A stretch of 64,000 nucleotides of DNA from Nitrosopumilus sp. (GTDB lineage Archaea; Thermoproteota; Nitrososphaeria; Nitrososphaerales; Nitrosopumilaceae). The stretch covers positions 1,280,001 through 1,344,000 of the forward strand of contig OZ240211.1 of the NCBI GenBank assembly GCA_965197525.1. The letters are read 5' to 3'. The position numbers were made by a program, and so were the translations under genes. The notes beneath the pieces are model-generated. The model saw only the letters and a program-made list of their open reading frames with translations. It ran no database searches and was not told where the DNA came from. Shown here piece by piece: positions 48,577-53,014 of the stretch (its first letter is position 1; each line of letters opens with the position of its first letter).

Positions 48577-49724
48577 AAGACGTCTCTGACGACTTTCCTA
48601 AATCTGAGAAGATCTATCTAAACAACGCGTCTGTTTCCCTTATGCCTCTGAAAAGTATTGAAGCCATGAACGAATTTCTAATGACGTATAATTCGTTAGG
48701 TCCTGACTCAAAGGATGCAGGACCGTTCATCAATGAAAAACTACAAAATGTCAGAAGGATCATCTCCAAGATCATCTCCTGTCAGCCAGACGAGGTAGTT
48801 CTTACTCAAAGCACAACTGACGGAATTAACTTTGTAGCAAATGGATTATCCTTTGATAGCAATTCTAGTATTATTATTCGTGGAATGGCACATGAACACC
48901 ATTCTAATTTCTATCCCTGGATTAAATTAAAGGAAAAACAGATTTCCATAAAAAACTTAACGATTGACGATAATGGTTTTTTCAATTTAGATGATCTAAA
49001 ATCATATGTTAGTAATAATTCTAGTACAAAACTAGTTGCATTAAGTCATGCACTGTATAACACTGGCGCTTTGTTACCTGTCAATACAATAGGTGAAATT
49101 CTTCAAGAACACCACGTACCCTTCTTTCTTGATAGTGCACAAACTGTAGGATGTATAGACGATGCAAGCACATCAAAAATACAATGTGATTTTATGTCTT
49201 TTAACGGCTCCAAATGGCTTTGTGGTCCAATGGGTACAGGATTATTTTATTGTAGGAGAGAATCAAGTCACTTACTCCAACCAACAACGATTGGTGGTGA
49301 ATCTGGAATGGTTTACGACGATACCAAGATTGCATTTAAAGATCTGCCTGATAAATTTCAAACTGGTTTTAGAAATTATGTAGGAATTGTTGGATTAGAG
49401 TCATCTGCTAACTATTTAGTGAATTTTGGTATAAACAACATTCAGCAAAAAAACCAGCACCTCTCCAACCTTCTTAGAGAAGAGTTGATAAAAATTCCAA
49501 ATGTTACACTATATGGCCCAAAAGACAAAGATGACAGGACTAGCATTGTCTCCTTTAACATTAGAGGAGTCAGCTCCCAAGAAGTTGTAGATAGACTTGA
49601 AAAACAGAATATTATTCTAGCTGTAAGAGAGATCTTTGATCAAAAGATCGTACGTGCATCTCCGCACTTCTTCAACACAGAATCTCAAATACAAAAAACA
49701 GTTGATGCAATAAAACAACTATAG
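48561..49724 (+). CDS. Cysteine desulfurase-like class V aminotransferase
   Basis: YLNNAS, HEHHSN, LDSAQ, FNGSKWLCGP, RASPHFFN. Confidence 0.9.
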   Translation: MNIVSKDVSDDFPKSEKIYLNNASVSLMPLKSIEAMNEFLMTYNSLGPDSKDAGPFINEKLQNVRRIISKIISCQPDEVVLTQSTTDGINFVANGLSFDSNSSIIIRGMAHEHHSNFYPWIKLKEKQISIKNLTIDDNGFFNLDDLKSYVSNNSSTKLVALSHALYNTGALLPVNTIGEILQEHHVPFFLDSAQTVGCIDDASTSKIQCDFMSFNGSKWLCGPMGTGLFYCRRESSHLLQPTTIGGESGMVYDDTKIAFKDLPDKFQTGFRNYVGIVGLESSANYLVNFGINNIQQKNQHLSNLLREELIKIPNVTLYGPKDKDDRTSIVSFNIRGVSSQEVVDRLEKQNIILAVREIFDQKIVRASPHFFNTESQIQKTVDAIKQL

Positions 49725-49976
49725 ATCTTCTTGCTCTTCAATTACCATCATAGTCAAGGTTGACTGGACTTTGTTAATTCTTCTGATCTTATTTGTAATT
49801 ATTGCACGAAGATTCTCTCCGTTCTCTGAAGATATTTTTATAATAATATCGTATATGCCGTATATTCCCTGAATCTCAAACTGCACGTCCTCTTCTGAGA
49901 GAATCTGTTTTAATTCACTGATAATTGACTGGTCTGATCCCAAATCTGAATTTACTAATACATACGCAGTCGACAT
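49719..49976 (-). CDS. Stand-alone Lrp/AsnC ligand-binding (RAM) domain protein
   Basis: AYVLVN..GIYGIYDIIIKI..IRRINKVQSTLTM. Confidence 0.88.
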   Translation of the reverse strand: MSTAYVLVNSDLGSDQSIISELKQILSEEDVQFEIQGIYGIYDIIIKISSENGENLRAIITNKIRRINKVQSTLTMMVIEEQEDL

Positions 49977-50009
49977 CTAACAACCACATTTAATGACATT
50001 ATTTAATCC

Positions 50010-50017
50010 TTGATTAC
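50010..50017. repeat. 8-bp target-site duplication TTGATTAC (second copy at 52961-52968)
   Basis: Exact direct repeat abutting both TIRs. Confidence 0.85.
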
Positions 50018-51426
50018 GGGACTTAAATACCTAGGTTACATTTCTGCACCAGAGTTTTTTTCTGACAGTCCAACAAATCATTCACAGCTTGGTTCTTGCC
50101 GTCTTTTTTAGAAACAACATGGTGTAAGCCATGTCTTGATTCTTTTGTCTTATGACGATAATCCCTACCGCCACTAATAACACTGACACTATTAGATGTG
50201 CCATTTTTATTAGCTAAAATAATATTTTCCATGCTGTCACACCTGTAGTTTCCATATCTGTCTACAAGCGGGAGCCTTCGTATGCACGGAAGTCCGTAAT
50301 GTCTGATGTTTGCGCCGGCGTTACCGTCTGCATCGCACAAAAATCCACAGCATACGCATTGAAACACATCCCTGGTGGTTCTAGAGTTACAGTTGATCAT
50401 ATTACACTTACTACACGTTATGCTGGTGTAGTGCGGAACAATCTCAAGTGTTTTGGTTCCATGGTTTTCGGCAGTCATTTTTATTCTATCCCCCATTCTT
50501 CCCATACCTGCCCCGTAAATCTCCCTGTTAAGACCGCTTTTCCACTTTTCATTTTTTGCAGTTATATTGCCAATGTTTAGTTTTTCCATGACTATCACTC
50601 CTGTTCTCATCACAATCTGTTTGGCAAGGAAATTATTGTGCTCTGTTCTTCTGTTGTTGAGTGTTTTTTTCATCCTCTTCAATTTGCGATCATTTTTTTC
50701 CATCTGTTACTATGCAGTTTGTGATCATCTCTTTTTGACTGTTGTTTTGAGATCACATCATCTTTTTTTCTCCTACAGGTATAAGGTGTCCTGTAAAAAT
50801 CGGCGTTTATTCCGTCATGAACTACTAGGGATCTCTTAACTCCCATGTCTATTCCGCATACGACTGTACAATTCATATTTTTAGGTCTCCGTATTTTTAG
50901 TGTCAGATGGATCTCAAACGTGCGGTTCGAATCGTTTGTATTGGCAGTGATTTTTTTGGTGTTCTCTACAAGCCTGTATGATACAATGTTGGTCTGATAG
51001 AATTTGCTAGTGCTGTTTTTGTCTCTTTCACATACCAGCTGCTTTGGAAGACTCTTCAAAGACGACAACAGCTCCACCTGGCCTATACTAGGCAGGTTCA
51101 TGTACAGTTTTTTCCACTTTCTCATCCTTAGCGAGGGATTCTGACCGTTTACTGTTATGGATGCATGCTTTGCATTTTTGGAGTTTCTGAACAAACTGTT
51201 TCTGTCAATCCATTTGTTTGGTTTGAGATTTTTAAATGACATGTGCCAGTTGTGGTTCTTACCCCCAGTCTTTTTTGCCCAATTTCGTACTCTACGTTTT
51301 TTTGCGCAGGATTTCAAATGTTTGTCTGCCGTATCATGCCCCTGTTGGAACGCAGTCGTTGCCACATTGGTGTGGTATCTGTTGCTCCATGGTATGGTGT
51401 GATGTATATTAGTAATGGCACGACTT

Positions 51427-52726
51427 CAGTAGTCGGAAATGTACTCCCTAAATCAACCAACAGACGTTCTCAATTATGTTAACATTCTTCGAACATACTG
51501 ATCTATTACCTACAGTGCCCTTACCCACCTTAGTGTTAACGCAAAAAGGTGGGCAGGTACACCACAATAAGATTGGAGAAAGGATACTTAATACCTTGTC
51601 AGGAATACTAGAGTCTGCACCCATAGGATTCTCTACGAGGAACAATGCCCAATACGGGGTAAGCGAGTTTGCAGCCATACTGATGAAGATGTCTGAATCC
51701 AACATAGCTTCTGAGGAGGCAATCCGGCTGCTCAAGCACGCCAAAAAGAGGATGCCGTCGCCCAAGTGGTTTCGCAACATGATAAACTCGCTGGAATCAG
51801 ACAGTGCAGACGAGCTCTGCACGGATATGATCACACGCACCGCAAGGCTTGCCAAGAATACGTGCCGGTACAAGGGGGGCGTACTAGTAGCAATAGATAA
51901 ACACCTGATACCAAGGCACGACAAGGACAACATGTCACATCTGACAAGATCCAAACCAAAGGGCGGTACAAGCAAGTTCGAGTGTTACGCAACAATGCAT
52001 GTGGTAGCAGAACAGGTTCCGGCCATTTTGGAGTGCATGCAGGTCACGCGCAGCGTGGATGACGCCGACTTTGTGCGTAAATTCGTCCAAAAACTCGTGG
52101 ATTACAGGATACGGGCCCGGTTGCTGCTGATGGACCGCGAGTTTTACTCGACTGAGATAATCAAACTTATATCAGAACACGGACGCAAGTTCCTGATGCC
52201 TGCAGTCAAGAACACGGGGATAAAGAGGATGATACAAGAGCATCACGATAAATTACGCAAGGCAGTCTCGCAGTACACCGTCAGAAACGCAGCAGGCCAG
52301 TCTGTCACATTCACATTGATAATCACACCCTCAAAAAAGATAGACGATCCTGATGTCAATACCACGGAAAGATATCATGTCTTTGCCACCAATCTTTCTC
52401 CTACCAAGGCACTAGACGAGATTGAGACGCTTCCGGAGGAGTACCGGAGAAGGTGGGGGATAGAGACAGGATACAAGCAAGTCGAGCAGGTACGCCCGAG
52501 GACAACAAGCCGCAATGCGTCGTTTAGGGTAATCATGTTTTACGTCTCGCTGTTCATGTACAACGCGTGGGCAGTGGAGCAGTATCGTGCAGATTCGAGT
52601 TATGATCGTGTGACTTTGGCACTTGTCGTATATGCTACAGCAATGGTTGCATTGGAATTATGTAGGATGGTGGGTCAACCGTATGATGTCGGAAAACCTG
52701 CCTAATGGGTACATTTCCGACTACTG
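51427..52726 (+). mobile_element. ISH3-family (IS4-like DDE) insertion sequence, 1300 bp
   Basis: Perfect 18-bp TIR CAGTAGTCGGAAATGTAC (51427-51444; complement at 52709-52726); 5-bp TSD GACTT (51422-51426, 52727-52731). Confidence 0.93.
51476..52705 (+). CDS. DDE transposase (ISH3/IS4 type), intact
   Basis: VAIDKH, LLMDREFYS, YHVFATN, YRRRWGIETGYK (YREK signature). Confidence 0.93.
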   Translation: MLTFFEHTDLLPTVPLPTLVLTQKGGQVHHNKIGERILNTLSGILESAPIGFSTRNNAQYGVSEFAAILMKMSESNIASEEAIRLLKHAKKRMPSPKWFRNMINSLESDSADELCTDMITRTARLAKNTCRYKGGVLVAIDKHLIPRHDKDNMSHLTRSKPKGGTSKFECYATMHVVAEQVPAILECMQVTRSVDDADFVRKFVQKLVDYRIRARLLLMDREFYSTEIIKLISEHGRKFLMPAVKNTGIKRMIQEHHDKLRKAVSQYTVRNAAGQSVTFTLIITPSKKIDDPDVNTTERYHVFATNLSPTKALDEIETLPEEYRRRWGIETGYKQVEQVRPRTTSRNASFRVIMFYVSLFMYNAWAVEQYRADSSYDRVTLALVVYATAMVALELCRMVGQPYDVGKPA

Positions 52727-53014
52727 GACTTGTCTTGATTTTGTCATATTTTTCAACCAGTCCTGTCTCTACTCCCATGTTGAAAAAATACGTCTGAAAA
52801 TTTGCAATCTTGCGTGCCTTTAATGACAATTCTTTTGTCTGCCTTGGTTTTACAATCACTGTTCTATAAATAAAATCTTCTATTTCTTTTTTCATCTAGT
52901 TAATAGTCTGTGTATTATATATAAGCGACGTGTATAATGTAATCCAAGTATGTAATTCCCTTGATTACCTTAAAATTGATTAAATACCACTTATTTTTCT
53001 ATACGTACATCAGC

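Follow-up and report, generated by a model that had tools for sequence, protein, structure and literature searches.

A disrupted tnpB gene of Nitrosopumilus lies between inverted repeats with 8-bp target duplications and overlaps a conserved structured RNA, a candidate omega-RNA scaffold

The window analysed here, a stretch of 64,000 nucleotides (positions 1,280,001 to 1,344,000) from contig OZ240211.1 of a Nitrosopumilus sp. genome (GCA_965197525.1), contains a broken gene which had been interpreted from its letters alone as a repairable TnpB nuclease with its guide RNA encoded at the junction of a terminal inverted repeat. This raises the question of what kind of element the gene belongs to, whether a guide RNA is read from its end, and which enzyme moves it. 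Cas12 descends from TnpB–omega-RNA systems, which also serve as compact genome editors. We consider it probable that the locus is a dead copy of a recently active, non-autonomous transposon with DDE-type ends, which carries TnpB together with an omega-RNA scaffold and is mobilised in trans by an IS1595-type transposase. The source genome, that of an ammonia-oxidising archaeon, is a single contig of 2.21 Mb, 99%-complete, in which archaeal amoA is present. A sponge metatranscriptome was among the matches of the run search, which hints at a sponge habitat for the organism. The element and its gene are laid out in the window as follows.

50018..52960, minus strand: whole TnpB-only element, with its right end (gene 3' side) at 50018 and its left end at 52960
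50018..50043: right terminal inverted repeat, with the stop codon of tnpB (TAA) at 5 nt from the element end
52935..52960: left terminal inverted repeat, GGGAATTACATACTTGGATTACATT on the minus strand
50010..50017: 8-bp target-site duplication beside the right end, TTGATTAC on the plus strand
52961..52968: 8-bp target-site duplication beside the left end, TTGATTAC on the plus strand
52895 to 50023, minus strand: tnpB pseudogene, full span of 2873 nt with two lesions
52732..52895, minus strand: tnpB N-terminal piece, about codons 1-55
50704..51426, minus strand: tnpB middle piece, WED/REC region and RuvC-I (GIDMG)
50023..50703, minus strand: tnpB C-terminal piece with RuvC-II (VMEKL), zinc finger, RuvC-III (DADGN) and a tail of ~100 codons, from Pfam (PF07282 and PF01385) and alignment
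51427..52726, plus strand: nested insertion sequence (IS) of 1300 bp with perfect 18-bp inverted ends
51476-52705, plus strand: gene for the 409-aa DDE_Tnp_1 transposase of the nested IS
51422-26 and 52727-31: 5-bp duplication GACTT flanking the nested IS
50694..50700, minus strand: frameshift, one base lost from an A-run relative to all intact copies, from alignment

The tnpB copy of the window is inactivated by the insertion of the IS and by the 1-nt frameshift. The nested IS interrupts the gene after about codon 56, and copies lacking it show in public contigs as 1305-bp skips; at the A-run (about 50694-50700) the intact copies read AAAAAAGAG, and the additional base is likewise present in some public contigs. 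It had been proposed that the gene could be rebuilt by deleting the IS with one GACTT and adding one A, and the arithmetic is right: 2873 - 1305 + 1 gives 1569 nt, that is 522 codons and a stop, matching the length of the intact paralogues. Such a reconstruction is nevertheless unnecessary, because five paralogues with open 522-aa frames, 93-96% identical to the C-terminal piece in the window, sit in the same genome, one of them at genome position 874750-876318. Further copies there comprise two 5'-truncated elements, one 386-bp derivative with an internal deletion, and one solo left end.

The gene is a TnpB with a complete RuvC triad and a zinc finger, its family membership being given by sequence, with which the predicted fold is consistent. 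The intact paralogue P0001 matches PF01385 with 47.4 bits (cut-off 30.5) and PF07282 with 47.8 bits (cut-off 26.3), while the C-terminal piece of the window copy matches PF07282 with 46 bits. The motifs GIDMG, VMEKL and DADGN are all present in the window copy, and the intact triad that had been read from them (D248, E336, D422) is borne out, being invariant in 17 family members together with the zinc-finger cysteines C393/C396/C412/C415. These residues align with the RuvC and zinc-finger part of ISDra2 TnpB, its catalytic region, and of Cas12f, and a profile built from the 17 members recovers over this core ISDra2 TnpB (E 2e-16), several Cas12f proteins (Cas12f at 1e-17) and one Fanzor2. The N-terminal 230 aa had no Pfam match. 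An AF2 model of the protein (mean pLDDT 54.5) is too poor to support conclusions on single domains. Foldseek places only TnpB and Cas12f among its top hits, over 440-460 columns and with TM-scores of only 0.32-0.45; the order of elements in this model (one strand, a helical bundle, a strand block, RuvC) and the hits themselves are consistent with a TnpB fold. After RuvC-III the frame runs on for about 100 codons up to the element end, much as had been noticed from the sequence. The resemblance to Cas12f in size is superficial, since these last ~100 residues are predicted by AF2 to be disordered (pLDDT 21-32; 21-48 over residues 416-522), and they look like the read-through translation of the RNA gene.

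The family is small, with about 18 proteins of 453-564 aa that are 41-96% identical, and the next-best matches beyond it are ordinary TnpBs (E 1e-19). It is present in one of the 67 genera sampled in the class, and pattern scans of contigs from GTDB genomes and JGI metagenomes found no close relative; the relatives from ENA that could be used at the DNA level were L023, L025 and L026.

The ends of the element are of a kind made by staggered cutting. All complete copies are bounded by inverted repeats of 26-30 bp, one end reading GGGAATTACATACTTGGATTACATT and the other GGGAATTATATACCTAGGTTACGTT; in the window the repeat arms extend over 50013-50042 and 52936-52965, and the ends start with GGGAATTAYATAC. 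Without the nested IS the element is 1638 bp long (1.64 kb), its boundaries are identical in seven other copies or fragments of the genome, and all six complete copies of the genome have an 8-bp duplication of their own. The same end architecture is found in the relative L025 (55% protein identity, duplication TTTTATTT), in a second TnpB lineage of this genome, in TnpB-only elements of two other species of the genus whose proteins are 33-35% identical, and in a 165-bp MITE that has no gene. The elements of G076 and G280 have 8-bp duplications and matching ends. Membership of IS200/IS605 (including the IS1341 group) was considered and rejected: a search for a Y1 transposase (PF01797) gave no match in the 99%-complete genome, and the inverted ends with an 8-bp target duplication are not those of an IS200/IS605-like element.

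The family has moved recently, as filled and empty alleles are both found among public contigs. The empty site that had been deduced for the window is borne out by a 15-kb public contig of a related organism, which joins 50007 to 52959 with a single copy of the duplication and 10 ambiguous bases. In one public sample of the organism to which the window is itself assigned the filled junctions are present, and in another a contig crosses the site without the element, with TCT replacing C next to the duplication. The related organism also has a copy without the nested IS at a different place, with its own 8-bp duplication. The sequence-only reading had further proposed that the far junction of the filled allele might be spared from self-cutting since it matches only 10 nt of the guide. 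This match consists of the 8-bp duplication, as in every copy, plus the terminal CC, two bases that agree by chance; a partial match of this sort comes with any element that makes a duplication and does not amount to a safeguard.

That an RNA scaffold overlaps the 3' end of the gene had been predicted as well, and the presence of a structured RNA there is upheld by a structure scan, by constraint on synonymous sites, by covariation and by a covariance model, all of which converge on a conserved sense-strand RNA ending exactly at the element terminus. Its parts are these.

50018..50177, minus strand: conserved structured RNA of 160 nt, candidate omega-RNA scaffold, overlapping the last ~52 codons and the right inverted repeat
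50154..50172, minus strand: hairpin P1, GGCGGUAG-GGA-UUAUCGUC
50054..50064, minus strand: single-stranded linker CAGAAAAAAAC from the long stem to the terminal hairpin
50018..50021, minus strand: terminal UCCC

Three diverged relatives, at 76%, 72% and 55% protein identity, served for comparison with the element of this genome. At positions with a shared amino acid, the codon too is identical in a fraction of 0.64-0.85 over the last 50 codons, as against 0.43-0.58 in the gene body (P per pair 4e-5 to 0.04, the pairs not being independent of each other). When the RNAalifold structure conservation index was followed along the whole element in a 150-nt sliding window, it reached 0.96-0.97 over the last ~200 nt versus 0.02-0.42 in the other 29 windows, whereas mean identity there is only slightly higher (0.72-0.77 versus 0.55-0.73); on the antisense strand the index is 0.65-0.75, below that of the sense strand. 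The consensus fold begins with P1 (GGCGG..GGGA..UCGUC), which is followed by a long composite stem closed by GACAG/CUGUC, by the CAGAAAAAAAC linker, by a terminal hairpin with its 3' arm inside the inverted repeat, and by the last 11-12 nt. In P1 three pairs covary and five are the same in all 14 sequences, and its GGGA loop (50162-50165) is unchanged in the inspected sequences from each lineage. The linker is kept at the right ends of TnpB lineages that are only 33% identical and is absent from their left ends.

Covariation was counted in two alignments, which for the close family rest on only four diverged lineages. Of the cells in the six-sequence alignment A2, 94.8% are paired; changes on both sides occur in 12 pairs, against 5.6 ± 1.6 in shuffled and 1-2 in slid controls, the structure having been derived from the same alignment, which favours it. 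In the 14 sequences of alignment A4, 93.7% of cells are paired and there are 69 double-change cells, against 26 shuffled and 5-15 slid, in an alignment which was fitted to the covariance model R1 and so leans towards structure; several G-U pairs are invariant there. R1 was built from the last 160 nt, a covariance model of homologous ends having been suggested earlier as a check on the scaffold. It scores 180 bits at 50018..50177 of the window and finds full-length matches at the 3' ends of distant TnpBs (33% identical), at 32-55 bits with E 1e-5 to 7e-11, each ending at the last base of its element. The same RNA motif closes the terminus of at least five divergent TnpB lineages. Within a sample of 71 genomes of the genus, R1 matches were confined to this genome (G000, 8 sites) and to G076 (10 sites). 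The scaffold of the window copy has three private substitutions, one of which breaks a pair of the long-range stem. Of the two hairpins that had been singled out in the tail, the one at 50117-50134 is real, two double changes in relatives keeping its pairing, but that at 50174-50195 falls beyond the conserved 160 nt, in an indel stretch. An Rfam scan of 49900-50500 returned chance-level matches only, with no matching family. The structured RNA is best read as an omega-RNA scaffold.

If so, the guide would be taken from the DNA that adjoins the element terminus, where the following features lie.

49998..50017, minus strand: predicted guide, made up of the duplication and flank (GUAAUCAAGGAUUAAAUAAU), by analogy with TnpB systems
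49719..49976, minus strand: host gene of Lrp/AsnC type that begins 41 nt beyond the right end and has the same orientation

Reasoning from such systems, we place the guide in the first 16-20 flanking bases past the terminus, and the target sequence so predicted is present in the empty allele of the related organism. In ISDra2 omega-RNA, -5U..-3C (UCC) pair with -105G..-103A and form a pseudoknot beside the guide (PMC10097598). The terminal UCCC of the present RNA could pair in the same manner with the GGGA of the P1 loop as a guide-adjacent pseudoknot, and neither of the two varies among the sequences seen. The proposal that TTTTAAG, the sequence 5' of the empty site, serves as the TAM finds no support among nine insertion sites, each of which has different bases 5' of the duplication (TTAAG, CGGTA, CATGC, GTAAG, TTAAT, ACTGT, TAGGT, TGCTA and TTTGT). 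Because no motif is conserved across these nine sites, a fixed TAM encoded in the flank, in register with a guide that begins at the first flanking base, is not evident. As to transcription, contigs of the sponge metatranscriptome cover 50018-50203 best, at a depth of 13.9 versus 2-5 elsewhere in the gene, which is a weak hint that the region is transcribed; these RNA-library contigs cover only parts of the gene and a flank and cannot show where RNAs end. The sole such contig over the element end continues 251 nt into the flank, with no stop after ~20 nt, and could be a read-through transcript or contaminating DNA. A TATA-like sequence, TTAAATAA (49999-50006), lies inside the predicted guide; a TATA box 11 nt downstream of the element is seen for this copy and, roughly, for three more of the eight copies compared.

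With regard to the enzyme that moves the element, the ends point to the IS1595 family, members of which usually make 8-bp duplications and have GG termini (PMC8101967). The element shares both features, an 8-bp target duplication and inverted repeats beginning with GG, and within the same genus IS1595-family elements have 8-bp duplications and termini that read GGTGATT or GGTAATA. A candidate IS1595-type transposase, with a Zn ribbon and a DDE domain, is encoded at genome position 615163-616173, 1 kb downstream of a GGGGATTATATAC terminus, and a truncated second locus in the genome repeats this arrangement of terminus and transposase. The close homologues of the candidate are confined to G076 (72% identity), G323 and G105; similar termini adjoin the transposase fragments of G323 and G105, and the G076 homologue retains only half of its DDE domain. 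No second matching end was found for the candidate transposase, the region between the terminus and its gene is not conserved between the two loci, and most IS1595-family loci of the genus have other termini. A search for an autonomous element with GGGRATTATATAC at both ends gave none in G000 or G076. On balance, we lean slightly towards this candidate as the transposase that mobilises the element in trans.

Each part of this picture can be read otherwise. The conserved 3' region might not be a guide scaffold at all and might instead represent subterminal DNA bound by the transposase, or a C-terminal tail with a function in the protein, which we regard as quite unlikely. It is true that the inverted repeat, which has to be read by the transposase, forms part of the region, and that the peptide islands GGRDxR and DCQKK are kept across the family, with the same frame giving GGREGR in the G076 lineage. 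However, the conservation continues for about 130 nt past the inverted repeat, nothing comparable is seen at the left end, and synonymous sites are under constraint. The pairing, moreover, outlives changes of amino acid, H-H becoming Y-R (H to Y and H to R) in the hairpin 50117-50134 and Y becoming G in P1, and the tail that is encoded there is predicted to be disordered; for these reasons a sense-strand RNA is favoured over constraint on either protein or duplex DNA. The invariant G-U pairs likewise fit RNA rather than duplex DNA, and the higher index of the sense strand points the same way. An RNA could also be real and take no guide from the flank, acting in cis in transposition or as an antisense or regulatory RNA on a host promoter, or finding its guide elsewhere. 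The lack of a conserved TAM beside the duplication at the nine sites would suit this alternative, as would the RNA-library contig that extends far into the flank and the position of about half of the copies, which are followed at 41-54 nt by a host gene of the same orientation and have an AT-rich box about 10-19 nt from the end. Against it, the invariant RuvC triad and zinc finger form the pattern expected of active nucleases, in each lineage the scaffold stops precisely at the terminus, and the terminal UCCC with the GGGA loop mirrors the guide-adjacent pseudoknot of ISDra2 omega-RNA, so that we judge it unlikely.

It might be asked, finally, whether a separate DDE transposase is needed, given that the element encodes nothing besides TnpB: TnpB alone, or TnpB with its RNA, would then move the element. 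This could explain why no autonomous element with both matching ends was met in G000 or G076, and why G129 and G280 carry such TnpB elements in genomes without any IS1595-family match. To our knowledge, no TnpB transposes DNA. Inverted ends with a fixed 8-bp duplication are, in contrast, the signature of DDE transposition by staggered cuts, and near-identical termini are common to TnpBs only 33% identical and to the gene-less 165-bp MITE, which points to a common external enzyme. Movement by TnpB itself appears to us highly improbable.

We therefore return to a TnpB-only transposon that is moved in trans as the preferred reading of the locus, and suggest that it might work in the following way. 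A 522-aa TnpB and a 160-nt RNA at the 3' end of its gene would be carried together between DDE-type ends. Transcription would read from the scaffold into the flank, so that the guide would consist of the duplication and flank, and the terminal UCCC would pair with the GGGA loop, as in the guide-adjacent pseudoknot of ISDra2. The RNA of the dead copy might be loaded in trans by the intact paralogous TnpBs, and the IS1595-family DDE transposase encoded at 615163-616173 of the genome would move the element in trans. It is conceivable, and we offer it only as a rather doubtful extension, that the terminal 12 nt are read twice, as DNA by the IS1595-type transposase and as RNA in a guide-adjacent part of the scaffold held by UCCC:GGGA; a shared module of RNA and end might then let unrelated TnpB lineages ride one DDE transposon, with the dead copy guiding the paralogues.

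The family provides material for studying the role of TnpB in DDE cut-and-paste transposons, as it offers intact 522-aa genes, a 160-nt scaffold defined by covariation, empty and filled alleles, and a candidate partner transposase. The copy in the window being a pseudogene, the intact paralogues are the ones to clone.

Among known systems, the element resembles the IS1595 family and eukaryotic Merlin in its 8-bp duplication and in inverted repeats that start with GG (PMC8101967), and differs from the IS1595 family in having no transposase gene inside it, its cargo being TnpB. With the IS200/IS605 element ISDra2 (TnpB structures PDB 8H1J, 8EXA and 8BF8) it has in common the RuvC–zinc finger–RuvC core, which aligns at E 2e-16, an RNA overlapping the gene at its 3' end, and a possible UCC:GGA pairing next to the guide. 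Unlike ISDra2, it has no Y1 TnpA and no subterminal hairpin ends, in place of which there are inverted repeats and a duplication; the protein is of 522 aa as against 408, and the 160-nt scaffold differs from ISDra2 omega-RNA in its helix layout and in that no conserved TAM is visible. Fanzor1 is a TnpB homologue which travels as a passenger of eukaryotic cut-and-paste transposons with TIRs and TSDs and has its guide RNA at the transposon end. In contrast to the Fanzor1 elements, the present one has a prokaryotic host, encodes a distant relative of the protein, and is far smaller and without a transposase.

The nearest comparison is with the TnpB branches DDE-1 to DDE-6, which, according to the main text of Altae-Tran et al. 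(2023, PNAS, PMC10691335), are associated with DDE transposases and lie within inverted terminal repeats. As described there, the 3' end of TnpB in these branches is near the transposon end, which implies an omega-RNA that reads the flank, and for solo TnpBs flanked by the same ends mobilisation in trans is presumed. IS630 is named as the DDE partner of one branch, and the main text of that article mentions neither IS1595 nor ammonia-oxidising archaea; our literature search, which took in this article by its main text, found no paper that ties TnpB to IS1595-type ends. The element of Nitrosopumilus agrees with these branches in having a TnpB inside an inverted-repeat element and in how near the 3' end of its gene comes to the transposon end; compared with the main-text account, it differs in its IS1595-type ends, in the absence of a transposase from every copy, and in a scaffold that includes the inverted repeat. 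As far as that account extends, the family described here is a further example of the TnpBs of DDE transposons published in 2023 (PMC10691335).

TnpB cassettes crowd this genome. Distinct from the element of the window, a TnpB-only element of 1.33 kb that encodes a 373-aa TnpB lies outside the window at genome positions 616697-618028; its ends begin GGGGTTCTGTTGGGTTAAC, and some 35 copies or more, with 76-98% identity, are present in the genome. A terminus of 25-27 nt, GGGGATTATATACATGGGTATACTTGG, is found at genome positions 614150-614176 and again at 1395907-1395933, and in both loci the motif that marks the ends of the other TnpB family, GGTTCTGT, follows it without a gap. This abutment in both loci suggests that nested or composite insertions have occurred near the gene for the IS1595-type transposase, the candidate mobilizer in trans.

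The window's insertion site also exists without the element. In the public run X3, which comes from a different sample carrying the same organism label, a contig spans window positions 50017/52970 and lacks the element, with TCT replacing the C that stands beside the duplication in the window; this difference may be a small scar or may reflect variation between strains. Downstream of the element's right end, at a distance of 41 nt, there is an Lrp/AsnC-type gene (window 49719-49976) in the same orientation, and a TATA-like TTAAATAA (window 49999-50006) is located 11 nt from that end. Besides the window copy, three of the eight copies have a host gene starting 42-54 nt downstream, and the remaining four do not.

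Short elements were observed as well. A MITE of 165 bp (genome 891809-891973; L031:2810-2974) has termini GGGGATTATATA and an 8-bp duplication, TTTCATAT; its ends are of the type seen in the TnpB cassettes, but it carries no gene. At genome 562158-562543, an internal-deletion derivative of the window's element, 386 bp long, retains both ends and is flanked by the duplication ATGTTAAC; directly adjoining it is another copy of the IS that interrupts tnpB in the window. This derivative retains most of the RNA motif, scoring 65 bits with R1, the covariance model of the candidate omega-RNA scaffold. When G076, another genome of the same genus, was searched with R1, ten sites were found, four of which are 463-aa TnpB elements, and the other six include 1859466-1859686 and 762481-762704.
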